A stretch of DNA of 59,512 nt, the filler included, from Circinaria calcarea (lineage: Eukaryota): the NCBI GenBank assembly GCA_051942165.1. It is 7 parts of 7 records of this genome, joined end to end, with 100 filler letters (N's around TTAATTAATTAA, not from the genome) between each part and the next. Parts side by side here need not be neighbours in the genome. Positions count along the whole stretch, not along the records: positions 25,567 to 33,983 come from JAVECS010001119.1; 6 more parts are not named here. One strand, given 5' to 3'. A program made the position numbers and the translations under genes. How positions within the stretch are numbered: the first letter of the stretch is position 1; each line of letters begins with the position of its first letter. The notes beneath the pieces were generated by a model. It was not told the DNA's origin. It searched no databases and was given only the letters and a program-made list of their open reading frames with translations. Below are positions 15,501 to 52,022 of the stretch, in pieces.

Positions 15501-15900
15501 TGCCACATCATCCGGCTCCCATTTCAACCTTTTCCATAGTCGTTGCGACTTGCCGCTGAGACTCCTGTGATTGACATCTAAACTCCAGTATTTCTCGACT
15601 ATCTTGTCTGAATCGACTAGTACGCTATGATATCCTTGAGTGATATCGTGTAGATGTGTCTTTTGCCGGTCGGTAAGCTCTCGTTCAGGTAGGACGTCCT
15701 CAAGATCCCTGAGGACATTCGATAGGCTCTTTACCCTTTGATAGTTAAAGTGATTAGCGTCGGAACCTTTTGAATGAAGAAATATGTTACTCCTCTGAGA
15801 TTCTCTTGAACTGGTCCGGTGAGTCAACAAATCTCTTGCGGACCTTGTTCGCGAGCGTGGACACTGCGATAATATCACCTACGCCTACACCAAAACTCAT
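12568..15900 (-). CDS. Fungal NLR: N-terminal HeLo-like helical domain + NACHT + ankyrin repeats
   Basis: N-terminus MSFGVGVGDIIAVSTLA..RLWKRLKWE. Walker A GMPGAGKT, Walker B FIVVDALDEC, FLLAQLHLDSL and RLVHYTAQEYF. About 12 ankyrin repeats. Introns near 15740-15790, 15375-15435 and 14510-14565 (approximate). Confidence 0.92.
12640..13521 (-). repeat. 99-bp high-identity ankyrin tandem array (8 similar units + capping unit)
   Basis: Repeated 33-aa unit GGxYxNALQAAAxxGHExxxRxLLSEGADINAQ, visible at both DNA and protein level. Confidence 0.9.
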
Positions 15901-17047
15901 CGTGAAGGTCACAACACAGTTGCGCGTTGCAAATGAGAATATCCAAAAACCATGAATTGCTGTTCAAAGTCGATGTAATACCACGGACAGAGTTCGAAAT
16001 AATAACAATGTAGCATATATTTGTAGGAGCCTTGCGCACATAGTGTTGGACACCAGCTGACACCAGCCAACAAAAATTGATTTAGGAGGTTTCGCTGGAT
16101 TTTTGTTATGTTAAACTAATGTAATGTAGGCTCGGAATAACTGAATTCCAGCCAATCCATACCCTGCACTCGAAAGAGCCCTTATCTACTAGTGAGCCTA
16201 TTCTGACCAATACGAAAGAGCGGATTTCGCTTGAGCAGGGTATGCTGCTAGCCAAGCCTTACTGAACTGGGCTAGAATATCGGTGCCGGCCTTCCGTACA
16301 TAACAAACTTCTTACAAAATTTCAGCGAAACCTCCTAATTGCCCAATAGTCGCAACTTTCACACACCACCTTCTCATCCCTAGCGATGCACCTTCCATTC
16401 GCAGAAGCTGGCTGTCACTTAGGAAACTGACCAGCGCACTTTCGTAGGAGATCGATGTTCGCGAAGCCACTATGGTGGAGAGACAAACTGTCGCAAGACC
16501 ATTACCGCAGAAAATCATCAATTCTAAAGGATGGCTTCGCAATGACCTGTTGCAACAGTGACAACACGAAGTGGAGTGTGGAGTGGATTTTGGTGGAGTG
16601 GGTAAAGGACGAGGTTAGGGGAGGAGAGGGGAACTTTGAGGGTCCATGGGTGGTGGGAAGGTAAGAGGCTTGGAAGGGTTTTGTTAATATGAGAATGCAG
16701 ACAGACCTTTTGTGTCGCTCTTAAAATACAGTATTTACGATGGTCGATTTGATAAATCGCTAGAACCTATGGGAACAAATGCAAGTCGGAATTCGCCGTT
16801 TTGCTACTTTTTGCAAGAATTTACTACCCTGATAGCGAGCCAGATAGCCCTCACCTAACAACACCCTTCCTTAATGGATATTCCCTTCAAACCTCCTTCC
16901 TCTCCCTCTCATCCCTCTTCCCCTCCAGTCCCTCCTCCCCCGGGACCNNNNNNNNNNNNNNNNNNNNNNNNNNNNNNNNNNNNNNNNNNNNTTAATTAAT
17001 TAANNNNNNNNNNNNNNNNNNNNNNNNNNNNNNNNNNNNNNNNNNNN

Positions 17048-18676
17048 ACCCGGCATGCATACTCGACGCCATGGCAAAAACGTTCCCAGTGATCGCGATC
17101 CGGATGATTCGCTCGCTCTCGGCGGATATCTACGAGTAACCTCGCACTCTGTGCAATCAGTGCCTTTGCGTCTGCGGTAGCAAGATAAACCTCCGTAGCT
17201 TCGGTTAGCTGGCGCAAGGTTTTGAAGCCGTGTTTGCCTTTCCAAGCGTCAAGTTTCATTTTGCCAATGCCTTCAATGACGTTCAGACGGAAGTAATCCG
17301 CGTTTCCTCGGGTAGAATGACTAACAGTCTCATGGGTTTTTTCAGAATAGCTTGCTCACTTCGCTGCGGCATTTAAATAGGAATAGTATTGCCGATAGCC
17401 TTGACCGGGATTTTCAACCTCGAGGTTCTTGCCAGTACCTATGCTAACGAATGCCTTGACAGCCCGAGGATTATTGTTGCATATTTGTTGGACTGAACGG
17501 TAAACTTCTTCCGATGGATTATTAGCACCAAAGCCTCCGTCAATAAACTCGAAATCATCATCCTCTTCGATTTTGACCGCTTTAAAGTAAGTGGGGGCAG
17601 CTGCCGTTGCGCGTCCAATTTGCCAGATCGGGTATCCATTGTTTTTATCTGGGTTTCTTTCCAATAGATCCCCATGTGTGCTTTTTGGGTGGCGGTATGA
17701 GCGGAATAGGTATGGGACCCGCGTGCCTTTGACATTTAACTTTTGCCAGGCGATGACAATGCTTCTCAGATGTCAGCGCAGTTCAGAAAACTTTTCGTCA
17801 ACATCTTACGTGCGACACATGTCGGTGTTTGCTTGGGTGAAATTTGAGTTAGCCAACCCGTCAGGCTCGAACTTCCTAACGACCTCTTTTATGATGTCCT
17901 CTAAAGGCCTGTGATCGTATTTGTCCCTAGGTATCCATGGTGGTTTACGGATATAGAATCTCCGAGGATGGGCGAAAACTCGGTCAGCGAGATGCTCATA
18001 TACTTCGAGGCACTCATCCACCGTCATACGGAGCCGACCGAGCATAATAGCAATCAACCTATACTCTTTTAGTCAAATTCCCGCAGGAGTATGATGGTAC
18101 TAGGCCTGCACACCCTCCAGTACTTGTCCCCGCTATATAATCGAAATAATGGCAAGGAAGGTAATTCGATAATGTCTGATGTCGGCGAGGTGCGGGCAAC
18201 GCGAAAATTTCTTCTCTTAGCACAGTACCGGCTCGATGACTGGGTTGCCGCATGACTGTAGTTCGGACACGTGGTTCCAATGGCGACACGCTGCTTGGTG
18301 CAAGAGGTTGTTCCTGTTCCAGTCTGGCAATTTCTTCCATCAAAGCCTGCAGGATCAACAGGCTCGAGTACCCTCTAACCCCGCCTCCGTCTGTTCAAAA
18401 TGATGGTTTAGCATACGATGTACTATGGGAGGTAGGCGACGAACCAAGTGTTAACAGGGTTTTTCTGATCCATGGATCGGGTTCAGCGGCTTCCCCAGGG
18501 GCGCCCGGTGTCTGAACTGTGATGTTGCTGTAACTTGTATGTTGACCGCTTGACGCGCTCTGGGTACTAGTAATATCCAAAGGACTCGGTCGCTGGCGCG
18601 AGGGCGACGAAGCTGTTGCTTGTTGAGACGATTGAGCTTCTGCCAGCACAGTGGTGGGTCTAGGACTAGACGCCAT
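17048..18676 (-). pseudogene. Patatin-like phospholipase, left-arm copy with premature stop (3' end cut by gap)
   Basis: GGGVRG, GTSTG and DGG motifs present. TGA at 17356-17358 where the right copy has TGG (AAK-W-ASY). Confidence 0.8.
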
Positions 18677-21600
18677 TGCAAAGTGCAAAATAGACACAAT
18701 GAATAACTTACAGATACGTTAAGCCAGAGATATGCCATGCATATAGGGACAAACTCAAAATCACGGGTCGGCGGCTGCAGAGCAAATGATAAAGAAAAAA
18801 CCTTCCATCTTTCTGTAAGACGAGGCTGCGAATGTCGCCCATTGGGGGCATTGAATCGGCAGTGAAACTTGACCGAAGCTCTAGAAAGTTGTTGGCAAGA
18901 AAATAAGAAATGCTATCGGAAAAAATGTCCACATCGGCTTCCCGCAAAGGGAATCTTCTAATACGAAGGCGTCCCTTATTCCAGATCCGTTCGCTGGTGT
19001 GGTTCCTAACATCTCCAAGAAGTCCGCTTGTTCGTGTCAGTGCCGCAGGACGGGGTCGCAATCGGCTGAGGATAGCTCTGCAGGGCTGTGGCAAGGTAAG
19101 TCACAGCCTGATGTCCATAATTGTAGTGTGCCATCTCTGCCATGAAGGCGGTCAATAACAATAGCAGAGGCGCAAGGCTGCAAAAGCAATGATGAGATTA
19201 TCAACGAACGCCAGCAGAGCCTCGCGCCACGGCAGGCTTAGCGTGCCAAGCAACCCCGAATCGAGGCAATGCAATCCCATGAATCCTTAGGTACCTTAAC
19301 TACATGGAGAAGAACTTAGCGAGGATGACTTTGGTGGGTGTGCGAAATGTCGAATCCAGTCACTTGATTGGCAATGGCACACAGCGCTCTTGCACTCACG
19401 CGCCTATCCTCAGCCCATGCGTACCCACACCCCTCGTGTGGGTGTCTGATGCTCCTCTTCCAACCCTCGCTTCAGTTTCGAAATAGTGTAAAATCACGGC
19501 TCCGGCTGAAAAGGCCTGGGTGGATGATCAGAAGTACCAAGTCTGCCTTGTAGGTCCACAACCTTTATTGCAGTGGGAATTGCCGGATAAGAAGCCGCAA
19601 TACGCCATAGTCCTGTTTCATCCAAGATCTCCGTGATTGTAACCATGTGCACAATCGTGGCAACGTTAAGGCTCAGTAAAATAACTGACAGATGACTCCA
19701 GGTACATAAAGTCCTGGCTACTGCATCTTACCTGGAATACCGAAGGCAAGAAGCTTTCCATCGATTTATCTTCTTACCCAATCATATTTGATAGGAGAAG
19801 GCATCAACTGGCCATCCTCAGCCACCACTGCCACTTGCTATTATTACTCATTTTTCATGGTATCAGACTTTCCCGATACCCCTCCTGCGCGAGCATTGAT
19901 GCGTGCATCCTCATCAAATCGAGAGGGACCTGTGGCAACTCCTACACCTAGCTCCAGGAGCGCCGACTCGAAACACGAGCCAAAGCCATTAAACTCTCCA
20001 CTGCAGCATCGAAGCACAAGCTGGGAGGTCAAACATCCTGAGGTTATCATCTATAACCCTGAAGATCATGAGTTATCCACAGTCCAACTAGCCGTCCTTG
20101 AAAGTAAGTTTGCAGACGTTCCAAAGTCTCCATCTAGAAACTGACCTTGTAGGGGATTCCAACAAATTCGAGGTGTACCTTCCACGGTGGCAGAACCGAG
20201 TTGATATCTATGTCGACCGCAAGGGGAAATCTGGCTTCGTTGCGAGTGTACAGTTGGATAAACTGGGGCGGAGTAAAAATTGGCAGCGGCGGCTCCGTCA
20301 TAAATACACTAGTCTCTATGTCAAGGGCCAAAAGCCCCGTTGCTGAAACGCAACACAGACATCATAACATTCTCGAGATGAAATTAAAGGGCCGTGTGCG
20401 GCGAAATGTAGATATTTTGTCTCATCAGAGGCTCCCCTGCCAACCACTCTATGCTTAGAGGTGATGATTGCGGTGTATCTGATGGTGATCCTTTGCTGGA
20501 GGGTTTACTGGAGTTGCAGGAAAGACCAACAGCCGATTTCTGGCCCGTATCGACGACCGTAGGTAACCCGATATATGGAATGCCTAATGGAGCTGCACGT
20601 ATATCACCAACAGCTTGCTCAGGTAATGCAAATGCTAGATAACGTGACCCTCAGCTCAAAGAACAAACATCAATCACATAGTCGAGTATAACTTATACTC
20701 CCGTTCAGAATCACTAAAAATACTTGGATACGAAAGAGAAGCAGCACATTAGCCATATAATGTACAGTAAATGACAATAATATCCACAAAGAGCCCGAAA
20801 ATCTCTAGGAGAAAATAACTATTCCTTGCGAAAGTCATCATCGTATAAACATTATAGAAATACTATTACCATTCCATCTTTGAATAAATTTTCGGCCTAA
20901 GAATGCTGAAGAGCGCTTGCTTGCATAGGATAGGGAATACATTGATATAAATATTCAAAATGGCCACGCCTTGAGCAATACTGGTTTCTAGGTAAGCAAG
21001 AGGCACGGTGGAGATAGAACTGTGATATTGAGAAGGGGAATAGGAGTGGAGAACGGAAGGGGGAATGGGGAGGGAGAATGGAGGGGAAAGAGAAGGGAAG
21101 GAGAAAAAGGGCAATCAACAAAGGATTTCATTGCTGCCTAACCACGTAATCGGGCACCATAAGGTATCTCGCTTATCTTATCTCGGACGCCGTCAATACC
21201 CGGCAGGGCTGTGCTAAGGTAGGGGAAAGGCAGCGTTCTTAAGATTTTGTCGTCGGTAACCGTATATATTCTTGCATAAAGAGCTGTCAGCTCTTTATGC
21301 AAGAATATATACGGTACCGACGACAAAATCTTAAGAACGCTGCCTTTCCCTACCTTGGCATAGCCCTGCCGGGTATTAACGGCGTCCGAGATAAGATAAG
21401 CGAGATACCTCACCCGATTACGTGATTAGGCAGCAATGAAATCCTTTGTTGATTGCCCCTTTCCGTTCTCCCCTCCATTTCCCCTTCTCAATATCACAGT
21501 TCTATCTCCACCATGCCTCTTGCTTGCCTGGAAACCAGCATTGCTCAAGGCGTGGATTTTGAATATTTATATCAACGTGTTCCCTATCCTCTGGAAGCAA

Positions 21601-23837
21601 GCGGTCTTCAGCATTCTTAGGCTGAACGCTTATTCAGAGATGGAATGGTAGTAGCATTTTTATGATGTTTATGCGATGGTGACTTTCGCAAGGAATAGTT
21701 ATTTTCTCCTAGAGATTCTCGGGCTTTTTGTGGATATTATTGTCATTTACTGTTGGCTTTCGTATCCAAATATTTCTAGTATTGCTGAACGGGAGTATAA
21801 GTTATACTCGACCATATGATTGATGTTTGTTCTTTGAGATGGGGGTCACGTTATCTAGCATTTGCATTAACTGAGCAAGCTGTTGGTGATGTACGTCCAG
21901 CTCCATTAGGCATTTTAAATTTTGGGCTGTCTACGGTTGTTGATACGGGCCAGAAATCGGCTGTTGGTCTTTCCTGCAACTCCAGAACCCTCCAGCAAAG
22001 GATCACCTTCAGATACACCGCAATCATCACCTTTAAGCATAGAGTGGTTGGCAGAGGAACCTCTGAGAAGACAAAATATCTACATTCCGCCGCACACGGC
22101 CCTTTAATTCTATCTCGAGAATATTATGATGTCTATGTTGCGTTTCAGCAACGGGGCTTTTGGCCCTTAACATAAAGACTAGTGTAGTTATGACGGAGCC
22201 GCCGCTGCCAATTTTTACTCCGCCCCAGTTTATCCAATTGTACACTCGCAACGAAGCCAGATTTCCCCTTGCGGTCGACATAGATATCAACTCGGTTCTG
22301 CCACCGTGGAAGGTACACCTCGAATTTGTTGGAATCCCCTACAAAATCAGTTTCTAGATGGAGACTTTGGAACGTCTGCAAACTTACTTTCAAGGACGGC
22401 TAGTTGGACTGTGGACAACTCATGGTCTTCAGGGTTATAAATGATAACCTCAGGATGTTTGACCTCCCAGCTTGTGCTTCTATGCTGCAGTGGAGAGTTT
22501 ACTGGCTTTGGCTCGTGATTCGAGTCGGCGCTCCTGGAGCTAGGTGTAGGAGTTGCCACAGGTCCCTCTCGATTTGATGAGGATGCACGCATCAATGCTC
22601 GCGCAGGAGGGATATCGGGAAAGTCTGATACCATGAACAATGAGTAATAATAGCAAGTGCCAGTGGTGGCTGAGGATGGTCAGGTGATGCCTTCTCCTAT
22701 CAAATATGATTGGGTAGAAGATGAATCGATGGAAAGCTTCTTGCCTTCGGAATTCCAGGTAAGATGCAGTAACCAGGACTTTATGTACCTGGAGCCATCT
22801 GTCAGTTATTTTACTGAACCTTAACGTTGCCACAATTGTGCACATGGCTACAATCACGGAGATCTTGGATGAAACAGGACTATGGCGTATTGCGGCTTCT
22901 TATCCGGCAATTCCCACCGCAGTAAAGGTTGTGGACCTACAAGGCAGACTTGGTACTTCTAATCATCCGCCTAGGCCTTTTCAGCCTGAGCCGTGATTTT
23001 ACACTATTTCGAAACTGGAGCGGGGGTTGGAAGAGGAGCGTCAGATACCCACATGAGGGGTGTGGGTACGCATGGGCTGAGGATAGGCGCGTGAGTGCAA
23101 GAGAGCTGTGTGCCATTGCCAATCAAGTGACTCGATTCGATTTTTCGCACACCCACCAAAGTTATCCTCGCTAAGTTCTTCTCCATGTAGTTAAGGTACC
23201 TAAGGTATTCATGGGATTGCATTGCCTTGATTTGGGGGTTGCTTGGTAGGCTAAGCCTGCTGTGGCGCGAGGCTCTGCTGGCGTTTGTTGATAATCTCAT
23301 CATTGCTTTTGCAGCCTTGCGCCTCTGCTTTACCATTGCCTAGCTCCTATTTTTATTGACCGTCTTCATGGCAGAGATGGCATACTATAATCATGGACAT
23401 CAGGCTGTGACTTACCTTGCCACAGCCCTGCAGAGCTATATCCCCAGCCGATTGCGACCGCGTACTGCGGCACTGACACGAACAAGCGGACTTCTTGGAG
23501 ATGTTAGGAACCACACCAGCGAACGAATTTGGAATAAGGGACGCCTTCGTATTAGAAGATTCCCTTTGCGGGAAGCTGATGTGGACATTTTTTTCCGATA
23601 GCATTTCTTATTTTCTTGCCAACAACTTTCTAGAGCTTTGGTCAAGTTTCACTGCCGATTTAATGCCCCCAATGGGCGACATTCGCAGCCTTGTCTTACA
23701 GAAAGATGGAAGGTTCTTTCTTTATCATTTGCTCTGCAGCCGCGGATCCGTGACTTTGAGTTTGTCCATATATGCATGGCATATCTCTGGCTTAACATAT
23801 CTGTAAATTATTCATTGGGTCTATTTTGCATACTGCA

Positions 23838-25466
23838 ATGGCGTCTAGTTCTAGACCCACCACTGTGCTGGCAGAAGCTCAATCGTCTCAACAAGCAACA
23901 GCTTCGTCGCCCTCGCGCCAGCGACCGAGTCCTTTGGATATTACCAATACCCAGAGCGCGTCGAGCGGTCAGTATACCGGTTACAGCAATATCACAGTTC
24001 AGACACCGGGCGCCCGTGGGGAAGCCGCTGAGCCCGATCCATGGATCAGAAAAACCCTGTTAACACTTGGTTCGTTGCCTACCTCCCATAGTATATCATA
24101 TGCTAAACTATCATTTTGAACAGACGGAGGCGGGGTTAGAGGGTACTCGAGCCTGTTGATCCTGCAGGCTTTGATGGAACAAATTGCCAGACTGGAACAA
24201 GAACAACCTCTTGCACCAAGCAGCGTGTCGCCATTGGAACCACGTATCAGAACTACAGTCATGCGGCAGCCCAGTCATCGAGCCGGTACTGTGCTAAGAG
24301 AAGAAATTTCCGCATTGCCCGCACCTCGCCGACATCAGACATTATCGAATTACCTTCCTTGCCATTATTTCGATTATATAGCGGGGACAAGTACTGGAGG
24401 GTGGGCAGGCCTAGTACCATCATACTCCTGCGGGAATTTGACTAAAAGAGTACAGGTTGATTGCTATTATGCTCGGTCGGCTCCGTATGACGGTGGATGA
24501 GTGCCTCGAAGTATATGAGCATCTCGCTGACCGAGTTTTCGCCCATCCTCGGAAATTCCATATCCGTAAACCACCATGGATACCTAGGGACAAATACGAT
24601 CACAGGCCTTTAGAGGACGTCATAAAAGAGGTCGTTAGGAAGTTCGAGCCTGACGGGTTGGCTAACTCAATTTTCACCCAAGCAAACACCGACATGTGTC
24701 GCACGTAAGTTGTTGACGAAAAGTTTTCTGAACTGCGCTGACATCTGAGAAGCATTGTCATCGCCTGGCAAAAGTTAAATGTCAAAGGCACACGGGTCCC
24801 ATACCTATTCCGCTCATACCGCCACCCAAAAAGCACACATGGGGATCCATTGGAACGAAACCCAGGTAAAAACAATGGATACCCGATCTGGCAAGTTGGA
24901 CGCGCAACGGCAGCTGCCCCCACTTACTTTAAAGCGGTAAAAATCGAAGAGGACGATGATTTCGAGTTTATTGACGGAGGCTTTGGTGCTAATAATCCAT
25001 CGGAAGAAGTTTACCGTTCAATCCAACAATTATGCAACAATAATCCTCGGGCCGTCAAGGCATTCGTTAGCATAGGTACTGGCAAGAACCTCGAGGTTGA
25101 AAATCCCGGTCAAGGCTATCGGCAATACTATTCCTATTTAAATGCCGCAGCGAAGTGGGCAAGCTATTCGGAAAAAACCCATGAGACTGTTAGTCATTCT
25201 ACCCGAGGAAACGCGGATTACTTCCGTTTGAACGTCGTTGAAGGCATTGGCAAAATGAAACTTGACGCTTGGAAAGGCAAACACGGCTTCAGGACCTTGC
25301 GCCAGCTAACCGAAGCTACGGAGGCTTATCTTGCTACCGCAGACGCAAAGGCACTGATTGCACAGAGTGCGAGGTTACTCGTAGATATCCGCCGAGAGCG
25401 AGCGAATCATCCGGATCGCGATCACTGGGAACGTTTTTGCCATGGCGTCGAGTATGCATGCCGGGT
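23838..25466 (+). CDS. Patatin-like phospholipase (iPLA2-gamma-like), right-arm copy, 3' end cut by gap
   Basis: Spliced TLLTL/DGGGVRGYSSL (intron 24070-24123), FDYIAGTSTGG, IAIMLGRLRM, RATAAAPTYF, FIDGGFGANNP, VSIGTG and YFRLNV. Open to the contig end. Confidence 0.9.
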
Positions 25467-25566
25467 NNNNNNNNNNNNNNNNNNNNNNNNNNNNNNNNNN
25501 NNNNNNNNNNTTAATTAATTAANNNNNNNNNNNNNNNNNNNNNNNNNNNNNNNNNNNNNNNNNNNN

Positions 25567-26442
25567 TCCCGACGGGCTTCGCGCTGGGAAGCGAGCTCAG
25601 CGATAAGAAGATCCACGTCCCGGTTGCCGCTGGCATTGGCATTGGTATTGGTATTGGTATTGGAATTGGAATTGGCGACGTCGGTCATATTGCTGACTGC
25701 GCTGGCAGTGCTGGCAGCTCGTTCCCGAGCGCGAGCGCGGCTTTCTTGTTCGATTTGTTCCAGGCGGGCCCAGTCTTGTTGTTCTCGGGCTTCCCTTCGT
25801 GCCCGTCGGCGTTCCTCTCGCTCCGCTTGTTCGCGACGGCGCGCTTGGCGGATGGCAAATAAAGTTTCCATCTCCTCTTCTCGCTGGGCTTCGACCTCAG
25901 CTTCCGTTTCGGGAAACTCGACTACCGTATCCACTCCTCCCCTTTCGCCTTCCCGCGCGATGAGTTGTTCGGAAGGAAGAGGGGCCACACGGTAGGGAGG
26001 AAGGGTTATAATCGAGCGAACCGAGATGCGACGGTCCACATCGAGGCTGGTGGACGAGGTAGGGACTTCGGTCGAGCCGGAAGGGGCATAGGACGTTGAT
26101 GTGGATTCCAGAGGGGTGTCGCGAGTGTGCGTGGACGGCGGTTTGGCAATGCGGCCATAGCTACCGGTGGAGCGCCAAGCTCGCCATTTGGATTTCAGGA
26201 AGGCTGTTGGGATGTACTTTGGTTCGGGATGTTTGGAACGGAAAACGATCAGGTAGAGATACAGGACGATCAAAACGACAAGCACGGAAATGCCTCCGAA
26301 AACGCCCTATCATATGATAAATCAGCAATAATCCAGTGCAAGTACGAATGATGGGGTCAGATACGACGAGCAGTCCTACTTTGTCCTGAGTGCTGAAGTC
26401 AGGCTGATCCGTTGTGTTCCTCGCTCCCAATGGCAGGTACAT
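25567..26442 (-). CDS. Single-pass membrane protein of unknown function, 3' end cut by gap
   Basis: Hydrophobic helix VLVVLIVLYLYLIVF, then SVRSIITLPPY and IAREGERGGVDTVVEFPET and an Arg/Glu coiled coil. Probable short first exon from 26442. Confidence 0.7.
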
Positions 26443-28278
26443 TGTCGCTTTGGGACGGAGAACAAATCACGTGGGAAGCAAATCGTCCGATCTTAAAAGA
26501 CTGCAAAGATATTTTCTGATGACAAGCTCGACGAGCCGCGAGGCTTTGCATCCGCAAAACTCGCGTCTCCGTCTGAAGATGCAAGAAATTCCAAGTTGGT
26601 AGAATTTGGCCTTCGTCCCTCACCTGAAGCTGACGACCTCTCGGAAGGGGGGCTGAAAATTAAACGGCGTCTAACGAAAAGGGCACAGTTGATCGATTAT
26701 TCCTTCGACTGGTCGGTCGTCGGTCGTCCGCCGTTTTGTGGCCGTGTGCGAAAGGCTAAACTTATGTACTGTGATAGTGTTACCTTACGCTCCAGGCAGG
26801 TTTTAATTAGATACATGGTCGACGATGACGGCCGGGTTTCCTGTTGATCACTGTCCATCACCCATGGTCCCCTTGAGAAAAGCTTCCATTTCAAGCGCCC
26901 TACTAACCCAAAAGCATCGGTAGTCCACCGACGGAAGAGCGGGGATCAATTCACCGATCCAAGAATGACCCACCATTCGGTTAGCCCCCGATAAGACTGA
27001 TCGCCCAAAGGCCCGGACGAAAGGTACGTATGCTCTCCCGTTCCATTGGTGTCCCACCGGTACGATCAGCAAGATCGGGAAGGCAATGGATCTGGGGATA
27101 GAGGCCTCAATTGATACAGCCCCCGGAAGCAGGACGAATGCAAGAGAGGTTACCCGTTAAACGTGGTAATGCATGCCCGCGGTATTTTTAGCAGTATTGC
27201 CATATGATTGGCTTCCTACATTACAGGCAACCTCCAAGGCCTCTACGTGATAATAGGGAATTCGGACGGAGAAAGGTCGTAAAGTACACTTGGAATAGTT
27301 CTGTGTGCACGGTGCTTGTCGAAATGTACCGACCTCTCTATGATGACTACACTGCCCACAATGATAATACATCGTCTGGGGGGTGGTTGCCCAGACCTCA
27401 GAGGTGCCTGGCTACACACACCTATTCCATCTCATAGCAACTCCTTCCTCAACGGCTAAAGAGTTGTCCGCGCTAGCACCACAAAGCTGAGACTTCTCAG
27501 GCTTCTGGCGTCAAGATGGCCCATTCCGGAACACAGAAAAGGGCAGGTCCTCATCCTGTCAGCTTGGGGAATAGGCTTTGATCTTAGGTCCCAACTCTAT
27601 TTTTCGACGTCCTTTCATCATTTAAACCTTTACAGCTTGAGGCCATTCGGAAGTAGACCATCAGGAGCCATTCTAAACGAGAGGTAGTCTTCATCGATAT
27701 CTCTCCGGATGACTTGGTCCGCGAGGGTGCCCAGGCAGACGACGCTAGGCGACCCATACCTGAAACTTTGAAATCGAACCCATATTTGAAGGGGCTTGAA
27801 GTCCTGGGCCAGATTGGACCCATTTCAACATCGCTGGCAGGCTCAGTCTCCAAGAGCTCCAAGTCTCTGCATCCCTCTAGCAGCCACTGGTCCATATCTT
27901 ATCGAGGCGTTCTGTTACTTGGCTGAACCTGGACTCGCTGACGGACCTGAGGTTGATCAAAGGTGTAATCTCAGCAACATCGTCCAAACTGTGATTGGTG
28001 AATTAGTTATGAGTTGGGTGAAATCCAACTATCATCGTTGTTCACGATTCTTGGTGAGCTCTGTTAAGTTGGTCTGTAGGGCAAACCGTTTTGAAGTCGG
28101 ACCACTAGTGTAAATCAGAGACACTAGACATGACAGACGCCACGTGTGGCGTGATGACTTGGTAATAGACTCTTGTTATATTTTGATCGAAAGATTAAAA
28201 GGAATATCATTTCCTTTTTTCGAAGATGTAGAATGCAAGCTAGGCTGGATCGCATAAATATTAAGAGTGGGAGGGATT

Positions 28279-29832
28279 TCATTCCACATTCAGATAGTCG
28301 TCAATTTTAACCCTGGAGAAGAAGGATATGTGACCAAAATCCTGCGGCTGTAATCAGTATTACTATGTGAGAATGCAGAAAACAACCTTTCGTACCTCCC
28401 AATACTGTGCCAAGGAATTGTGCGAAATCATCAGTAGTTGCGAAGGTATGTACCTGTCTGCTATGTGTGAGTTCAAACCACGAGAGTTGAGTCTTCAATA
28501 ATGCCTACCATCCTTGAAACCTCTGACTGCAATATGACCCCAACTCTTAACGACTCTGGCGCCTTTAAACATTTGCTCGTCAGCAACACGAATGAGTCCA
28601 CCACGCCCAATGTCTTCAGCAACCCAGGTGTACTCGCCCCTCGGTACGTTTGGATCACCTGTCAGCTTGATGGCCTCTAAACGGCCGGTGCACCCAGGTG
28701 GATCCTCCTCCTCGGTTGGGTTGACAGCAGCACCCTCACCAGATGTATCGAGTAATAGTCCTGTGTCTGGATCTGTGAATGAGGGCCCTTCAGGTGGGAA
28801 AGGGATGATCCGTCTTGTTTCGTCAACGTCCCGTTGGGTAACAACCAGAAATTCACAACCGTGGCCCGCATAATCGCCGACCCATATGCCCTGCCAGGGT
28901 TTGCTTTCTGTAGGCGTATAACAGTCCGTAGGGAGTGTACTGAATGTCATCACATCTTCGCCCATCCTAACGCCCAAGCGTTGACCCGGACCTCTGAATT
29001 CCATCCACTTACGCATACGGAAGGTGGTGTCACTCATTTCTGATAGAGTCCGAGGACGATGGGCCTCACCCTTGAACAGAGTTGGGCTATCATTACGCAC
29101 ACGATGCGTAGCCGGTATGATGCTGGGCGGCCAAAGAGCCATACCAGGCATCTGCAACTCTGTCGGTATAGGCCGGCTTAGGAACAGTGTCGACCGTATT
29201 CCATGCGAGCTTCGATCTGGCGCTCCCTGCATGAGTATCTCTTGTTGCAAACGACCCCCAGGGCCATATTCACCTGGCCGTATCTTGACGACAGGATCGT
29301 CTAGGAAAAGTGAGATCTTCGGATTGAAGGTGTGTATAATGACCTCATTGTTCCGTTCCCACGTTTCGAAGGTGTGCGGCCCATGTTCAGCAAGAAGCCG
29401 GTAGGCCTCAATGCATCCCGTACGATGGTCATAACGTGCAAGTACCACCTGCCCAACCAAAGTGCTTCCGGTATGTGCCTTGTCCGAATACCAGATCTTG
29501 TGCTTCGGGAGGAACCAGTAGGGATGATGGGCTTCGTAAAGCTTCCGCCACGTATTGTAATGAAAGGGCTGTCTTGGAAGCACAAACAGGTTCTGCGCAA
29601 CGAACGCAGCCCATAAAAGGTCGTTTTCCGTATGAGAGCGCAGGAGATGACAGGTTGCCGACGTTGCAAGGAGCGCAGAGGGTGGTAGGTTCCTGAGGAT
29701 CTGATCAATGATCTCACTGGGCAGCTTCAGCAACGCGGAAATATCCGGGGTCGACTTGGGCATTGCGAGCTGTGGTTCCGGGGGAGTGCTCGTGGCGGAG
29801 GAGAGGGTTAAATAGTTCAGGAGCCTCTCCAT
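28279..29832 (-). CDS. F-box protein with FBXO31-like (cyclin D1-binding-type) C-terminal domain
   Basis: F-box LLKLPSEIIDQILRNL, then GIWVGDYAGHGCEFL and EAIKLTGDPNVPRGEYTW. Two short 3' exons DRYIPSQLLMISHNSLAQYWE and DFGHISFFSRVKIDDYLNVE*. Start uncertain (29832 or 29763). Confidence 0.85.
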
Positions 29833-30878
29833 TGTGCCGACCGAAAGCTCCACCTGCTGATCTTGGAGCTCCCGCCGTAACTCCGTATGGCGGCAACGAT
29901 GATGATGAGTAGACTGGCCTCGGCTTATCTTAGCGTATGCTTGTTCATGGGGGTGTTTCTCGAGCAGATGCAATTGGGAAGGTCGAGATTGAAGGGAACT
30001 TCCATCTTGAGTTCCACTAGGCGCATTGGGCGTATGGGCCCTCTGCGAAGAGAACGGATGTTGTGGTCGAGCGTTTATGAATGGTGCTGTAGGAGAGCAG
30101 TCGGGACGGTTGGTTGGTTCTCTTTCGGAAGGTGAGAGCAAGTTGAGGTTGAACGAGAACAATTCCAATCAGATTCCCTTTACGCTCGCACCGACATCGG
30201 GCAGAATGGTAAAAGCTCGAGGGACTGGTTTTATTCCCCTCTGCTCGTACGAACTATACAAGTTTCGACATAGGTACGCTCGCTAGCCCTTCTTACATTC
30301 CGCCCTCACCTTCTTCTTGGGGGATACTGCAGCCTGACTGCATAACGGCTCGGTAACATGATTAGCCTATGGGACCAGCACCCGACATGTTTCCGGGGAG
30401 CCAGGTCAGAGTACTCTCGAGAAATTCATTCACATGCTTATGACGGCAGCGACCAGAGCATAAATTCTTTGCAATGTAGCATGAGGCTAAAAGCAGTGTT
30501 TGCATGAGCGGAAAACTGTGCCCGATTTCCAGGCTCTAACGCCAGCCCTATGATAAATGAAAACCTCATATCCGCTGTTCCGGTGTAGTCTCGGATGCCG
30601 TAACAACCTTTTGCATGACATAGGCAAAAAAAAAAAACTCTAATAGGCGGGAGATGGCTAGCAGCTTGGCTAGATGTTGCCCTTAAAATGTGTGGAGCGG
30701 ACATAAATCCTCCTAAAGGCGTTTGTCCGTCATAACCGTTGCTGCCTGTTGACCATATGAACCATACTGAGGCTCAAATAAGTAAAACTCCTCCCCTTCC
30801 CTCTTGAACAATAACTCCTCTCCCCCTCACTTTCCACCGAAAGGCGTTTCTCACTTCCATTCACTCAGCCACCCAGAT

Positions 30879-32639
30879 TCAGATCAGAGGCAACTGGGAC
30901 GCTTCGGCTTTGCTCATCCCTTGTGGCTGAATGTCCGGATCGATCCCAATAACTTCTAATCGAGCGTGTCTATTCAGAAGCGCCAAAGCCTCTTCGTCCT
31001 GGAAAACATACTGGGTCGTCGTCCTCTCTATGTCCCCATCTTGCCTTTTCAGCTTGTGATGCTCTGTGATATCCTGCCATTTCGCGATTTTGTGATAAGC
31101 TTGATTTTTGCCTGTGGCGATATCGCCAATGAGCAACAGCCGAGACTTAAGAAACTGCAAACTGTCCGGCCATGCAAGGGAGCGTCGGCTGTGCCAGACA
31201 ATCTGCTTCCACTCATCATCTTGTAAAGTGTAGGGGTCCATACTCTGAAGCACTGAATTCGGTACCTCCATGTACAGTAGAGCCCCCAACCCATTCGATT
31301 TGAGGGCCGCCCACTTAGCGTATCTTACGCCTGTTGTTCTGTCCAACGTGAAATAGAGTAAAGGTGCCCTCCCTTGGAAGTCTGTAGGCCTAACGTATGC
31401 ATCCTGCGTTCGAAGATTATTCGCTTCCGTATTCTGATCACGTGCAAGGTTGATGAGTTCCTGATCTCCCCCACGCCACAATTTCGTGGTCCCTGGCGTG
31501 AAGTTCGGCGTTGCTATTCCAGTTTGCACATTAGGGATAGGATCCCTACCAGCAGAGAATGTCCCACCCGGCTTGCGCTGTCGTTGAGCCCTTGACGCCC
31601 TCTCTTTCATCAAGGCTCTGATGCGTGTCGTACTGGCCTGCTGCATGCCTAGTAACGAGCGAAATCTCATGGCGAATGTATCTCGTAACCAGTATTTAGC
31701 CGAAGCTGTCATCCGAAGGTCTGAGTATTCCGGAATCATGATAACATCGATTAACTCCTTAGAGATTCCAAGCTGGCGTAAAACGGCGTGCCAGTTGTCA
31801 GTCTCATCTTCAGCATCCACTTTAATGCTGCCTATATAGGCATCCGCCATTGTTTGGAATTCATCTGGGAAATCAGGATCTTTTGACAACTCCGCCCATC
31901 TGGTCCAAATGTTACCCGCAGCTTCCTCATCAAATCCCATGAATCTTAGAGTCTGTACGCTTTCAAGCTGCTCGGGTATATCAACAATGTAATCCGACGA
32001 ATAGCCACTGTCGTGGCTACTGCCACTTGATGCAGAAACAACTCGCGCATCACCCTGGGCGACATATTCCCCTTGAGCATTGTAGTGTATACCAGATGCA
32101 GTATTTGTATTCGTGAAACCAGTCTCCTGAAACTCATGCTCGGGAGCGGAAGGTGGGACAGCAGATACCTCTGTAATAGCCTTGACAATCTGCTCTTGTT
32201 GATCCTTGGTTGCGGTTTTCATGCCACGTTCAGAGGCCAAGAGTTGTACGTCCTCCAGTATCCCTTTCATCAAGTTCTGCACCTCAATTCCATTCCCATA
32301 TGCCTTGACTGCCTTATAGTATCGCTTCAACCCCGAGGTACCGTCTGTAGGCATGGCCTTTTGGAACATATCATCCAGCTTCTTGGCCTTCTTTTCGCAA
32401 GCCTCAACGACATGCTTCAACGCCTCACACGAATGTACATCAACATCTCCCCTATTGATATGTTGCTGTGTTGGACCCAAGATATTTTCGACGATTGGCA
32501 GTTGACTTGCGACCTCGCGAAAAGCTTCAGGAAGGCCTTGCGTATTTGTTGCGACGTCGTAAGCTTGCTTGATCCCATCGACAATTGAAATGATAGACGA
32601 AATCACCGCCGACACGGCAATAGCTTCGGCGCCTGACAT
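30879..32639 (-). CDS. SesA-like helical domain + sigma-type amyloid motif fused to a domain of unknown function with putative ADP-ribosyltransferase-like fold
   Basis: Uninterrupted 586-aa ORF. MSGAEAIAV..GLPEAFREVASQLPIV..VQNLMKGILEDVQLLA is SesA-type, followed by GFTNTNTASGIHYNAQGEYVAQGDAR and then LWRGG..DFQG..LYFT..EWKQIVWHSRR..LIGDIA..TQYVF. Confidence 0.8.
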   Translation of the reverse strand: MSGAEAIAVSAVISSIISIVDGIKQAYDVATNTQGLPEAFREVASQLPIVENILGPTQQHINRGDVDVHSCEALKHVVEACEKKAKKLDDMFQKAMPTDGTSGLKRYYKAVKAYGNGIEVQNLMKGILEDVQLLASERGMKTATKDQQEQIVKAITEVSAVPPSAPEHEFQETGFTNTNTASGIHYNAQGEYVAQGDARVVSASSGSSHDSGYSSDYIVDIPEQLESVQTLRFMGFDEEAAGNIWTRWAELSKDPDFPDEFQTMADAYIGSIKVDAEDETDNWHAVLRQLGISKELIDVIMIPEYSDLRMTASAKYWLRDTFAMRFRSLLGMQQASTTRIRALMKERASRAQRQRKPGGTFSAGRDPIPNVQTGIATPNFTPGTTKLWRGGDQELINLARDQNTEANNLRTQDAYVRPTDFQGRAPLLYFTLDRTTGVRYAKWAALKSNGLGALLYMEVPNSVLQSMDPYTLQDDEWKQIVWHSRRSLAWPDSLQFLKSRLLLIGDIATGKNQAYHKIAKWQDITEHHKLKRQDGDIERTTTQYVFQDEEALALLNRHARLEVIGIDPDIQPQGMSKAEASQLPLI

Positions 32640-33836
32640 AATGTGGTTGTGAGAGAAAGGTCCAAAGAGGGACGTCCTAGACAGTCCTATTAGCATCAAA
32701 GCGAAACACTCGAATGGGTACCTTTACAGGCAGTGTTCAACTGGGACTATTATAGATGTGAAGGTGTTGAGACTGAATCGTGGAAGATCAGCGGTGTAGC
32801 TACTTCGTCCGCCACTATCAAACCAAGTGAGGAAGGTCGTCACTTTATGCTTCAAGGACTAGTAAGAAAGGTAGAATGTGAGAAGGTGTCAGTGAGGATA
32901 GAGGATGGGCAATTATGAAATGCCAACGCTTGCGACTGAGCTTGATTGTGTCCTTATGTACTGAAGGTGCCAGCTAGGTTGAGATGTTGACTGACACCCC
33001 TCACTAGGTAGACAGACAGTGAGTGGTACTTAAGCAAGTCAATGAATTGTCAAGTGAAAGCTCGGCTCATCAGAATTTTCACGGAGTAAGTGATTGGGGG
33101 ACTACCTGCTAAATAGAATAGGCTACGAAGGCTATAAATGAGAGCAGTCTTTGCGCACGTTATTTCTTCTGTAGACCTTTGGGCTTTGCATATCATACCC
33201 GCCTGTATTACGGTATGCTGTCTCTGTGAATGTAGATAATACAGAGTAGCGCAAGAAGATTCACAACCCTCCTGCAATGTCTTCAAGACGGAACCCCAAA
33301 CAGTCGTCAGGCGCGCTGTCACGTGGGGATGTTCCTCCGACCAAATCCACTCGGCTTCTCATGCTTCTTCCCCCCCCCCCCCCATACAAAATGTCGCTCG
33401 GTCATGTACTTGGGATCAGGTGAACCTGCTGCTGACCTATTGAAATGACAAAATCCCTCGAAACGATTCTCGTCGAGGGAGTAGCTGCCTGGAGTTTGAA
33501 ACCGCAAGATCCAATCAATTTGTTTTCTCGACGCGAAGATCGCGTTTTCTTATCTTAGCGCTAACTTGGGGGGTTTTTGGACCGGGGGTGCTTCTGTTTG
33601 TTTACACTGTGTTGAGTTTTATATGGTAGCCTGCTGCCTACCACAAACACATGATTTGAGTCACGTATCATTACCGTGTTTCTCCCATATCCAATTCTTC
33701 TTCAATGAGAATCCTGTCAATTCTCCTACAACAGTCGAACTACGTGACTGGAATTATTCCTCTTCAAGCTTGAATGTAAACAAGCAGCAACGCTTTATTA
33801 CGTTTAATCCCTTCAACATCATATATTGGTTTGGAG

Positions 33837-33983
33837 ATGACCAAATCTATGCACCAGCTCACCCAAGACGACTTGGACGATGATAGACCCATCGCGGTGC
33901 GTCGAAAGAGGCGCATGAGCACAGCACTGGCGAGCCCCCATCGAGAAACTCAAGCCAACTCTTCTGATCGAGGAGCACCAAAT
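33837..33983 (+). CDS. Possible 5' fragment of a hypothetical protein cut by gap
   Basis: ATG-initiated frame open to the contig end, with protein-like DDDRPIAVRRKRR. Too short to assign. Confidence 0.35.
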
Positions 33984-34083
33984 NNNNNNNNNNNNNNNNN
34001 NNNNNNNNNNNNNNNNNNNNNNNNNNNTTAATTAATTAANNNNNNNNNNNNNNNNNNNNNNNNNNNNNNNNNNNNNNNNNNNN

Positions 34084-41001: not shown

Positions 41002-42597
41002 GATGAAAGGGAGGGGGACTTGAAAGAGTGATTGGACACAGATGTGCGCCTGATGAGAGGTCTCCCAGCAACCTAGCTTCTTGTCACGACTCAGCCCCGT
41101 GCCATTCCATTCAAGCTACTATGGCTCACCGCACACACGTGGCTCGCATAGAGCATTCAGGGTCCCCACATGGTCCTTCCTTTCCACAAAGGCTATGGAA
41201 TACTACCAATTGTTTGATACGTGTGTGAAACGGCTGTGGATTTGCTACGTGGGAGACTTGCTACTCATATACACGAATGACACTAACGCTACGTCTAATA
41301 CGGTCCATAGGGGCGAGTTCCAACGCCAATCCATACGTGACGTCACTTGCAAATCGCAACTGTGCCTACAATATCGCACTTTCCAACGCATATACAATAT
41401 CACGCCCCAAGTCCAAACAGAACCCAGACCTACCCCTTTTTCCTTTCTCCTTTCTAACAAGCCCCCCCGTAGCCGAAGGGTTTCCTTGCTTTCCTTTCCT
41501 TTCCTTGCAAGCGAGTATATAGGCAACTTGGTACCCCACCCGCTCCTACCCCTATCCCTACCCCTACCCCTCTAATCTCTTCCCGAAGTAGTAAAGTACC
41601 AAGCGGTAGCAAGAAAAACCCGATAAAAAAAACCGAAAAGTATGGAAATTACTACTGAGAGATGGAAAGGGGGTTTGGGTTCCGCGTGCATGACTTTCTT
41701 TGGTTTAAAATTGGCATGCTTTATATCTTCCTCTATCAATTTCCCTGTAAGGATCCTTTACGAATAGTATGATGATCTTACGAATAAAGGGTCGGTAAAC
41801 TGTGTGATAATGTGCTCAATTGGGTTCGCATAGCGTATAAATTATCGCTAAAGAATTCTGGTGTGACGCTTCGCGAGGAAAACCCTTCTCGCTAAGCTAA
41901 TACCTCGTGACCTCGGTGTATAATTCACCCGTCGGGTTCGTAGGGGGTTCTCGGGTAGAGCCCTTGTAATTATTTTAAAGAATAATATCCGCTTTTCATC
42001 TCGCCAATAATCATACCACGTTTCTATGCCGGCTTTTTTTTTTCAAGAACATATAATAGCTTCGAGCCCCCGCCCTCAGCACCGTCGTTAAATATAAATT
42101 TTTTAAATTTGGAATCTAATTAATATTTCCTCCCTCTTTTGGCTCTTCCGGTATAATTGGTGCTTTCCCGCGAGATTAATAATATTGCAGGTCTGAAATG
42201 GCCTAATTCTTTTATGAGCTTAACTCTCCAGGTACTTATATATAGCGCGCTCGTTAGGGAATGTTTATTAGAATACCCGATGCTCTAATTAAATTCCTTT
42301 ATCTTTTTCGGTGTTACTGAGGGGACACCCACTGAGTTATCCGGAAACCTTTGAAAGCCGTTTCGCGTAGATGCAGTATCTTTGCGAGAAGCTTGGGTAT
42401 GGAACGGGTTTTGTGCGCATAATTAACTCTTAGACGGTGGATGCGAAGCCAAAATGCAAGCGCAAAGTTTGAATTATCTGGGTAAGATTTTTTTGTGNNN
42501 NNNNNNNNNNNNNNNNNNNNNNNNNNNNNNNNNNNNNNNNNTTAATTAATTAANNNNNNNNNNNNNNNNNNNNNNNNNNNNNNNNNNNNNNNNNNNN

Positions 42598-45722: not shown

Positions 45723-46671
45723 TATTAGTGAATTGTCTCGTCACCCTCCACTTCTTTTCCGCGCACCTTTTGACCAATTTCATCCCCCTTATTCAAAAGC
45801 TCGAGCCTGGAAACCCTTCTTGTCAATGTATGGCATGCATATTCCACTTATTATAAATATGATATCAATGTTAGGGGATCCAAAAATCCACGGATGTTAA
45901 TTACATACAACGCCGAATCTCGAAGCTCACCTAGAGCACTGAATGTTATATCGAGTATTCTCTTCGCATTTGAAATTTCATTGGATATACTATTTGTTTG
46001 GACTGCTTTTCATATATATAACGGGAGGGACTCTAATATACATATGACATTAGTGACTTGGCGTGGCAGCAGGTACTAAAAGGCATTAGATTGCGATAAT
46101 ACAAATATTAATTCCTAATATTTATTCGTATTGTTATTAGAAAAATAGCCGACACTCTGAATCACCAGATTCATTCAGACATCCTAGGTGGAATGAATCG
46201 CTTTTTAAATTTTCTATCATTACATTCTCCAAAACCGATATAAGAAGCATCGCAAGTTCTGTGGATGGGGATATCGTAAGGAGATTTTTGAACTTGGTTT
46301 ACGCATGACCCAAGATTCTTCGAGGTAGCGAAGACGGTCATACCAGATTTACGTCCGGACCAACGCGTCGTGCAGCACAACAACCCTAGGATCCCAGACC
46401 TCCTAGTGGTGACAAACCCCATGAGGCTACCGTCTTTGGTAGATTTGTCCCAGCCCACCGCTGAAGAGCGAGCCGTGCAGCAAATACTTGCTGCTAGATT
46501 ACAATCCCAAGTCGTGCTCAATCGTAACAATCCAGATACGGGCCCACGTGAGCGCACCGCCAAAGGTTGTTGAGGCCTGGCGTGAGGTGCTGGGTATGTA
46601 ACCGATCTGAATTCGACCGAAAGGGGCCTCTGATTCATGTGTTGCAGGCCCTCCCCCAATCGAAGCAGCCG

Positions 46672-46965
46672 CAACAACAGCAAAGACAACAGCAGCAAAG
46701 ACAACAGCAGCAAAGACAACAGCAGCAAAGACAACAGCAGCAAAGACAACAGCAGTAAAGACAACAGCAGCAAAGATAACAACAGCAAAGACAACAGCAG
46801 TAAAGACAACAGCAGCAAAGACAACAGCAGCAAAGACAACAACAGCAAAGACAACAGCAGTAAAGACAACAGCAGCAAAGACAACAGCAGCAAAGACAAC
46901 AGCAGCAAAGACAACAGCAGCAAAGACAACAGCAGCAAAGACAACAGCAGCAAAGACAACAACAG
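46672..46965. repeat. 15-bp minisatellite CAGCAGCAAAGACAA, about 19 copies
   Basis: Directly visible. It produces the SSKDN, QQQRQ, LLLLS and VVFAA repeat ORFs in the track. Confidence 0.95.
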
Positions 46966-51010: not shown

Positions 51011-52022
51011 NNNNNNNNNNNNNNNNNNNNNNNNNNNNNNNNNNNNNNNNNNNNTTAATTAATTAANNNNNNNNNNNNNNNNNNNNNNNNNNNNNNNNNN
51101 NNNNNNNNNNAATGTTGGTTGGTCCCCCAGCCCAGACAGAGAAACACCACCACCCCAGGGAGTTCGGAAAACTGTTGGAAGTTGCTGCCGTTTCAGCGCG
51201 CCCCCCTTCCGATCGAACTTCCCTCATGCGCCACCGTCCCTATGTACTATACTCTCACGATCGGTTAGGAGAAATCCAATCTCCCCTCCTTCTAGTCAGT
51301 TCTGTCCCTTTCCTACCGCACAGCCCAGTAGATCCCTAATTTAAAAAAAAAAACATCCCCTCCGTTGGAAACTAAACCGGGAGCCCCCCCTTTGAGCCTT
51401 ATGGGAATAGGGATTCCCCTTACACACACAGAGGGAGGGGCTCTTTCGCTCCTCCCCACCCTGACCAACCAACACCCAAAAAGCTTCCTTCGCGTCAAAA
51501 AGTGCTTCCCGGAATCAAAGCCGGTGTTGTAATGGGGCTGAAGGTTCTACATACTTTCTTCCCACAATGTATTCGGGACGAGTTTGTGCGAGTTGTAGCG
51601 CGCAGAATTGGGGAAGTTCGCCTCAGCCCCGTCTGCTGGAGAGGCGTGAAGAAGGGGGCCCGCCTTAACCAACAAAGATCCCTCCTCACAGAGAGGATCG
51701 TAGCGATAGCTTGTTTCTACAGAACGTTGGGGTTGGGGGGCATTGTCCGTAGTTTCGGTGCGTTGTAGCTTCTTATATAATGCTCACGTCCTGCCCGTCT
51801 ATTCTCAATCATTAGAGACCGGCGCTCCATTCAGCAAATACAAAAAAGCATTCTTATAGATAAACCCCCCAAAAAATAACAGATTTCACTTCCTCGCAAT
51901 CTACCCCAGTCGTTCACAGATTTCTATCGCTTTTTCCCGTTTTAGATCACACGTCCAGTCTCTTCTTTCCAGCTTATCAATCTTTCCAATCTCCCTCACG
52001 TTAAACCCACAGATCAGGCATC

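Follow-up and report, generated by a model that had tools for sequence, protein, structure and literature searches.

An in-frame union of SesA and an ART-like domain

The 59,512-nt window analysed here is the whole stretch of DNA taken from the Circinaria calcarea assembly GCA_051942165.1, and consists of seven contigs of ~8.4 kb each, joined via 100-nt spacers of the form N44-TTAATTAATTAA-N44. Our subject is a single gene on one of these contigs, in which a SesA domain related to those of fungal NLRs is joined to a domain related to the ADP-ribosyltransferases (ARTs). The coding sequence, at 30879..32639 on the minus strand, comprises 586 codons plus a stop at 30879-30881, and no intron is needed to read it. 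The encoded protein is called P0001 below, and residue numbers refer to it. The longest reading of the frame, 30879..32696 (minus strand), gives 605 aa from its first ATG, and the ATG at 32639 gives 586 aa; as the resulting MSGAEA start is common to 13/13 aligned relatives, ATG 32639 is the likely start. Both halves of the open reading frame (ORF) align to relatives without gaps suggestive of introns, and the ORF is real and intact, in agreement with an earlier note on this DNA that had described it as 586 aa long and intronless. A division into two separate genes was considered and rejected: the halves are read through without a stop codon, and M233, the first Met beyond the junction, falls within a conserved helical domain.

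The N-terminal part is a full-length member of the SesA family. Residues 13-134 (32238..32603, minus strand) match the Pfam profile PF17107 with an E-value of 3e-36 and 124.7 bits (gathering score 26.3), over profile positions 1-122 of 122, so that the SesA-type N-terminus of the earlier note stands. With residues 1-215 as the query, 29 other proteins were found at E<=1e-3 among 822 candidates, with coverage of up to 100%, and a NACHT/NB-ARC-type family is present in 26 of them, mostly together with ankyrin repeats. Over residues 1-199 the ten best share 56-74% identity with P0001 and include proteins of Xylographa, Amorphotheca, Venustampulla and Claussenomyces, with relatives from Pseudogymnoascus and Bacidia directly below them at 56-57% identity. 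The in-frame residues ..SHNHI that precede MSGAEA recur in relative P0154, which suggests that the 5' region of the donor NLR was carried along. P0001 itself contains no Walker A pattern ([AG]xxxxGK[ST]), again as the earlier note had it, and the Pfam search at E<=10 revealed no family of NTPases. SesA is described as a HeLo-like or MLKL-4HB-like, membrane-targeting domain that occupies the N-terminus of 'all-in-one' fungal NLRs (PMC9815663, PMC12881547).

Behind SesA lies an N/Q/G-rich motif, FTNTNTASGIHYNAQGEYVAQGDAR, at residues 175-199 (32043..32117, minus strand), followed by ~387 residues; the motif had been recognized previously, with its end put at 32120 and ~390 residues after it. Alignment identifies the motif as the first ~25 of ~40 residues of the linker that leads from SesA to NACHT in the related NLRs, ending after GDAR. 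The consensus of the relatives' linker is FTxNxxGxGTQxNAQGExIAQGxARQYNSxGxMxFG, of which the QYNSxGxMxFG part is missing in P0001, and relative P0158 provides an example of the full linker (FTAINFGSGTQNNAQGEYIAQGDAKQYNIGSGTMNFGS). When the NLR P0158 was compared with the window by tblastn, the match ended at 32043. The fusion junction, ..GDAR / VVS.., maps to 32037..32045 (minus strand): NLR homology extends to residue 199/200, and homology to an ART-like family starts at 201. This bears out the suspicion of the earlier note that the motif is truncated and the gene possibly chimeric. A comparable arrangement was seen in P0157 of Amorphotheca resinae (650 aa), where SesA and a complete N/Q/G linker precede a long hydrophobic, apparently multi-pass non-NLR C-terminus in which no Pfam family was found. 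The presence of SesA and linker on this non-NLR body indicates that the N-terminal module has been shuffled in nature.

The earlier note had called the motif a sigma amyloid module, a designation that we do not retain. Profiles for SesA and for sigma were both applied, and the former matched whereas the latter did not: NACHT_sigma (PF17106, gathering score 27.6 bits) gave no match at E<=10 in P0001, or in the 87-aa piece encoded by 31980-32240 when this was searched alone. As a positive control, PF17106 was detected in the more distant relative P0172 at residues 173-202 (E 6.7e-7, 29.8 bits), the same position at which the N/Q/G motif sits in P0001. The match in relative P0152 was weak (9.2 bits, E 1.8), and nothing was found in relatives P0155, P0157, P0158, P0161 and P0173. 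The sigma motif is described as ~40 residues long, with submotifs repeated three-fold (PMC5485727). Judged from its sequence, the segment in P0001 is a degenerate, truncated relative of the linker at the sigma position, and not a sigma motif by Pfam or by published length.

The C-terminal family, its modelled fold and its active-site residues

An exhaustive phmmer search with residues 200-586 returned 839 family representatives (clusters at 50% identity) at E<=1e-3, with 417 at <=1e-10 and 48 at <=1e-30; 150 of the 839 are listed. The median length of these 150 is 430 aa, and the family consists mostly of stand-alone proteins of 400-480 aa. The best full-length match, P0003, is 38% identical and its alignment begins at fragment residue 2, so that family homology begins immediately where NLR homology ends. 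Three named members, from Claviceps digitariae, Alyxoria varia and a record filed under the tree Carpinus fangiana, are all annotated as 'hypothetical protein'. No Pfam family was found at E<=0.01 in any of 18 family members tested, no PHROGs family was matched by more than one of 77 members, and a metagenome scan with the C-terminal part yielded 70 pattern matches, of which none was confirmed.

The layout of the family is a helical domain followed by an ART-fold domain. In P0001 these are preceded by a Ser-rich segment at residues 200-221 (31977..32042, minus strand; pLDDT 45-61 over fragment residues 1-20), which corresponds by homology to the Ser-rich N-terminal tail that the stand-alone proteins possess. 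The helical domain, residues 219-355 (31575..31985, minus strand), begins with IPxxLxS..LGF and is modelled as helices H29-156 with pLDDT >90; its conserved columns are P222, S227, G235, W283, G291, R309, W317 and L329. The IPxxLxS anchor is present in 118/149 full-length representatives scanned. Upstream of it, the N-termini of stand-alone members read ..GLLSxxxNGKRKIS.. or ..G(T)RRxHKRRLNRSSDEE(Y/H)xxxPL.., and a basic cluster was found in 66 of the 96 representatives with at least 35 residues before the anchor. This cluster resembles a nuclear localization signal (NLS), and the acidic Ser-rich sites that follow it possibly make it an NLS with phospho-sites. P0001 has no basic cluster in the equivalent 90 residues: by alignment, SesA and the linker replace the first ~40 residues of the family, which hold that cluster.

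An alignment of 77 family members, A1, was used for Pfam scans, residue counts and an AlphaFold model. The model reached a pLDDT of 87.8 and a pTM of 0.84, and a model from the single sequence (pLDDT 34.3) was discarded. In the predicted layout, a disordered connector separates the helical domain (fragment 29-156) from an alpha/beta domain (185-366). This last part corresponds to the ART-fold domain, residues 383-565 (30945..31493, minus strand), with fold matches at model ~179-376. Foldseek against the Protein Data Bank (PDB) placed the RES toxin first (E 7.5e-4, TM 0.58 on target), followed by ParT, RhsP2, PARP1/2 and exotoxin A, and ART-fold proteins alone appear among the 50 rows listed. 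VIA, a Foldseek-independent search of 48,161 chains, returned RhsP2 (Z 8.4, 128 aligned, root-mean-square deviation (rmsd) 4.7), ParT (7.6), RES (7.4) and exotoxin A (7.0), with ART-fold proteins in all of the top 30 rows of a wide search and in 50/50 rows of a second look. On the evidence of the model, the C-terminal domain is an ART fold, a class defined by its split beta-sheet, as the earlier note had surmised by eye. Sequence searches of the PDB gave a chance match only (E 1.8) with the single protein, and Lmo0066 only with the family profile (E 1, aligned at the LYRG strand), which is not significant.

The resemblance to DUF3990 (PF13151) that the same note had proposed was recovered at the level of the family. 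At E<=10, DUF3990 was detected in 12 of the 77 members, with a best E of 4.4e-7, and every other Pfam family was matched by one member each. At E<=0.03 it was found in 7/76 members, over profile positions ~23-150 of 152, mapped to the C-terminal domain. No member reaches the DUF3990 gathering score of 32.2 bits (best 30.1 bits), and these sequence matches support a distant kinship, not membership by the Pfam rule. Among bacteria, DUF3990 was absent from E. coli K-12 and was matched in Lactococcus lactis. In an Atlas feature search, DUF3990 clusters ranked 1 and 3 (score 0.88, a lead only), with an ascomycete hypothetical-protein cluster at rank 2. DUF3990 is assigned to the Pfam ART clan (PMC7955679), and has been described as the C-terminal tip of an Rhs effector of the type VI secretion system in Serratia (PMC4524185).

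The structural alignments with PARP1/2/3/4 span the helical domain as well as the ART domain (model ~18-375), with 189-222 residues aligned, Z 5.2-6.5 and rmsd 5.5-7.4. The model thereby hints at a PARP-like arrangement of helical domain (HD) and ART; an Atlas search with the helical domain alone gave no usable match.

The series of C-terminal motifs listed in the earlier note is present in full, at 31002-31481: LWRG 387-390, DFQG 420-423, YFT 429-431, YAKWA 440-444, EWKQIVW 476-482, SRR 484-486, LIGDIA 503-508 and QYVF 543-546. Most of them coincide with the most conserved columns of the ART-like family. R389, in the beta-1 motif LWRG (31473..31475, minus strand), occupies a position with K in 41, R in 29, I in 3, H in 3 and Q in 1 of the 77 members. 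Y429 of YFT (31353..31355, minus strand) is Y in 71/77 and forms a Y-X10-Y pair with Y440 (31320-31322, minus strand), which is Y in 66/77. Q543 of QYVF (31011..31013, minus strand), at the start of a late strand, is Q in 75/77. The complete [K/R]-Y-Y-Q set is found in 55/77 family members. D420, F421 and R485 are also near-invariant and are kept in P0001, which retains 18/19 of the columns conserved at >=85%, a number equal to the family median. The patterns LW(R/H)G, YF..., Y-X10-Y and (Q/E)Y(V/I) resemble motifs of PARPs.

The catalytic triads of the ADP-ribosyltransferase superfamily are H-Y-E or R-S-E, with Glu where beta-5 begins, and R389, Y429 (plus Y440) and Q543 lie in the motifs expected for such a triad. 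In RhsP2 the triad is R-Y-E, with R as the pyrophosphate-binding residue, Y stacked on the nicotinamide and Glu at the start of beta-5 (PMC12340436). The 2026 preprint on VopU attributes mono-ART activity and an H-Y-Q triad to this protein, and states that diphtheria toxin and PARP1 retain mono-ART or NADase activity after E-to-Q substitution (bioRxiv 10.64898/2026.05.07.723553). As a sequence pattern, the [K/R]-Y-Q set would allow NAD+ binding and a slow chemistry of the mono-ART or NADase type, and we put the chance that the putative ART-like module has measurable NAD+ chemistry at slightly less than even.

Origin of the gene and competing explanations

P0001 unites both homologies at a sharp junction, and carries an ART fold in which the conserved [K/R]-Y-X10-Y...Q pattern is kept. 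That its anatomy is that of a real chimera we regard as highly probable. With somewhat better than even confidence, we favour the interpretation that the gene, from an ascomycete that is probably lichen-forming or of a related lineage, is an NLR-derived chimera without amyloid gating, in which a death domain that targets membranes is combined with an enzyme module that probably binds NAD. The 5' region, SesA and the first ~25 linker residues would have been donated by a SesA-NACHT-ankyrin 'all-in-one' NLR, and would have replaced the first ~40 residues of a family member with a helical and a DUF3990-like ART-fold domain. The ART-like module may bind NAD+, with R389 contacting the pyrophosphate and Y429/Y440 the nicotinamide; with Gln at the position of the catalytic Glu, the module would be at most a slow mono-ADP-ribosyltransferase or NAD+ glycohydrolase. 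SesA would bring membrane targeting or damage, in place of the usual, probably nuclear, address of the family. Together, SesA and the ART-like module would make a NOD-less, two-module effector of cell death or defence. Amyloid templating is not expected in such a protein, because the linker remnant is too short, too degenerate and without a partner.

Several observations weigh against this interpretation. The same fusion was sought elsewhere and not found: a SesA hidden Markov model (HMM) built from the relatives matched 0/150 of the listed family representatives at E<=10, and the family HMM matched 0/29 SesA relatives. The fusion is known from one 8,417-bp contig, and the assembly to which this belongs has at least one foldback artefact. 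P0002, which among the relatives comes closest to the C-terminal part, is 86% identical over 133 residues and is a predicted protein of 136 aa only, a fragment that may represent a broken copy in a related genome. No DUF3990 match was obtained with P0001 itself at E<=10, and all of the fold Z-scores are middling (<=8.4); the uniform ART-fold lists, together with the independent DUF3990 signal, nevertheless make the ART fold convincing. In the active site, the catalytic-Glu position is Gln in all of the members but two (75/77), and the equivalence of Q543 with the catalytic Glu is itself inferred from motif similarity, spacing and placement at a strand start in the model. In RhsP2, the best structural match, the corresponding E1576Q substitution is reported to be inactivating (PMC12340436). 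Residue 437 is Gly in P0001, in contrast to the near-invariant Ala of the family.

An assembly or chimeric-read artefact, in which the 5' end of an NLR was united in frame, by chance, with an ART-like gene of another locus, either in silico or at library preparation, would account for the record of the exact protein from a single contig and for the seamless junction, which has no extra residues. It gains some credit from the neighbouring contig (17048-25466), an almost complete foldback palindrome, with arms 86-97% complementary, of a kind typical of long-read artefacts. We nevertheless judge an artefact distinctly unlikely. The two parts share orientation and frame, both breakpoints fall within disordered linkers and every domain is whole, which would be an improbable outcome of a random join. 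Composition is unchanged across the junction (GC at third codon positions 0.497 vs 0.522, overall GC 0.487 vs 0.495), no 14-mer of the junction region recurs elsewhere in the window, and P0157 offers a natural precedent for SesA and linker on a non-NLR body. A less improbable alternative, to which we give about one chance in five, is that the DNA is real and the chimera young and neutral: a by-product of NLR birth-and-death turnover, without selected function and heading to decay. The uniqueness of the architecture in the two samples searched, the truncated linker and the existence of P0002 as a fragment would all fit this, and death-and-birth is the mode of evolution described for fungal NLR genes (PMC9815663). 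Against it stand the 586 open codons, the conserved columns and all four triad positions kept, the SesA profile covered end to end, and a P0001 branch without acceleration (35th percentile for root-to-tip distance, 75th for the terminal branch). These arguments form a weak test, as a very recent fusion would show the same intactness.

Two further proposals concern mechanism. The earlier note had advanced an amyloid-gated NAD+-using toxin, in which the N/Q/G segment, as a sigma-type prion-forming sequence templated by a matching NLR, switches on the ART domain and/or SesA. The coincidence of the motif with the PF17106 position of P0172 speaks for this idea, as does the description of sigma motifs beside both pore-forming and enzymatic effectors (PMC9815663). 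The proposal is very improbable in our view: PF17106 matches neither P0001 nor its 87-aa piece and reaches at best E 1.8 in the closest NLR relatives, ~25 of ~40 linker residues are left, and the motif sits internally rather than at the C-terminus, the place of effector motifs. In addition, the motif was seen only once in six-frame pattern scans of the window, and 25567-33983, a contig of only 8.4 kb, carries no NLR; a partner could lie elsewhere. It is also conceivable, although we consider it rather unlikely, that the protein works as a switch of the MLKL kind: the ART-like module would sense NAD+/ADP-ribose or slowly modify itself and, with its helical domain acting in the manner of the autoinhibitory HD of PARPs, would restrain SesA and release it on a metabolic or infection cue. 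Such a switch, if real, would couple NAD+ status directly to membrane-rupturing cell death, without a NOD or an amyloid step. Its corollary would be that the stand-alone family (at least 839 clusters) is a new clade of eukaryotic ART enzymes, probably nuclear ones, with [K/R]-Y-Q as their triad.

Genomic setting and comparison with known systems

The contig of the gene, 25567-33983 (JAVECS010001119.1), is bounded by the spacers 25467-25566 and 33984-34083. The remaining artificial spacers lie at 8426-8525, 16948-17047, 42498-42597 and 51011-51110, and gene order across spacers is artificial. Two genes are physically linked to the SesA-ART gene, and these are the sole two: an F-box/Cyclin_D1_bind gene at 28495-30168 (minus strand) and, at the contig start, a CR6_interact-like ORF. 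No foldback repeat was found in this contig. The contig 17048-25466 is a near-complete foldback palindrome, with outer arms of 1,878 nt at 97% complementarity and nested arms that reach the centre near 21280. Its appearance is that of a foldback artefact from long reads, the alternative being an inverted duplication of natural origin, and we take it to show that the assembly contains artefacts. Patatin-like ORFs are mirrored at its two ends, at 17356-17772 (minus strand) and 24742-25518 (plus strand).

A NACHT(NPHP3_N)-WHD-ankyrin NLR is encoded at 12568-15429 (minus strand) on a separate contig, with an upstream ORF at 15393-15878 (minus strand). This ORF, an N-terminal exon of the NLR, has no similarity to SesA or the linker. 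The ankyrin repeats of the gene form a 99-nt tandem array of nine copies, 62-82% identical in DNA to the reference copy, which is typical for fast-evolving fungal NLR repeats. The NLR was considered as a partner for P0001 and rejected, given its location on another contig, the lack of SesA or linker similarity in its N-terminal exon and the lack of a motif copy. As the NACHT-ankyrin gene and the patatin pieces are on other contigs, their linkage to the SesA-ART gene is not shown. Elsewhere in the window, the first contig carries an SPT23/MGA2-type gene (DNA-binding domain, IPT/TIG, ankyrin) at 3-3136 (minus strand), spread over adjacent ORFs, probably because of introns, and an ORF with a cytidine/dCMP deaminase domain at 6644-7795 (plus strand). 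A 15-nt tandem repeat of ~29 units at 46597-47034 lies beneath overlapping ORFs of both strands, within a region of strong AT skew (0.27).

In this gene, a SesA module of NLR origin is coupled to a domain of the ART superfamily, both of kinds already known, and the underlying family is a sizeable uncharacterized ART-like clade. Among the papers listed by our literature searches, none joins NLR or SesA terms with ADP-ribosyltransferase, and hence none describes the fusion; likewise, no fungal DUF3990 paper was found, and none that combines R-Y-Q with ADP-ribosyltransferase. In a review that mentions HeLo-like domains, ADP-ribosyl was encountered only in the reference list (PMC12881547). The main text of a 2022 survey of fungal NLR effector domains contains neither ADP-ribosyl, PARP nor DUF3990, and its supplements may list more. 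The one H-Y-Q mono-ART that we found in the literature is that of the 2026 VopU preprint, which describes itself as the first (bioRxiv 10.64898/2026.05.07.723553). A eukaryotic ART-fold family with [K/R]-Y-X10-Y...Q would widen the catalogue of NAD-using enzymes. In the chimera, the SesA and linker module of fungal NLRs has moved onto a non-NLR body, a move that is relevant to the assembly of fungal immune and cell-death architectures and supplies a natural construct with which to ask if parts other than a NOD can drive SesA. As a single instance, the gene carries limited weight.

Among known systems, the SesA-NACHT(NPHP3_N)-ankyrin NLRs of Xylographa, Venustampulla, Pseudogymnoascus and Bacidia share with P0001 the MSGAEA start, the full SesA domain and the beginning of the linker. 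They possess NACHT/NB-ARC, Walker A and ankyrin repeats, whereas P0001 lacks all of these and its linker enters an unrelated family. P0001 likewise resembles sigma amyloid signalling proteins in having an N/Q/G-rich segment behind SesA at the PF17106 position of P0172, but the segment is ~25 rather than ~40 residues long, is internal rather than C-terminal, and has no motif-bearing partner that could be found in the window.

On the enzymatic side, the fungal family shares with the mostly bacterial DUF3990 (PF13151) the profile stretch ~23-150/152 and the fold class; it differs in its length of ~400-480 aa, with an extra N-terminal helical domain and a basic cluster. RhsP2, an RNA 2'-OH ADP-ribosyltransferase, is the best structural match and, like P0001, has Arg instead of His at beta-1, plus Tyr. 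VopU has Gln at the third triad position, as does P0001. In contrast to both, the [K/R]-Y-Q combination of the fungal family was not found in print, and identity to them is 12-19%. The catalytic fragments of PARPs have the same domain order as P0001, with a helical domain ahead of ART; however, their Z-scores are no better than those of ART-only matches, rmsd is 5.5-7.4 A, P0001 has neither the His nor the Glu, and the helical domains may or may not be homologous. Finally, MLKL offers a functional analogy only, in that an N-terminal killing domain of the MLKL-4HB-like kind is followed by an enzyme-like domain without the canonical catalytic residue. MLKL joins a four-helix-bundle executioner to a pseudokinase, and the C-terminal fold of P0001 is unrelated to the latter; restraint or release of SesA by the ART-like domain would be a hypothetical parallel.

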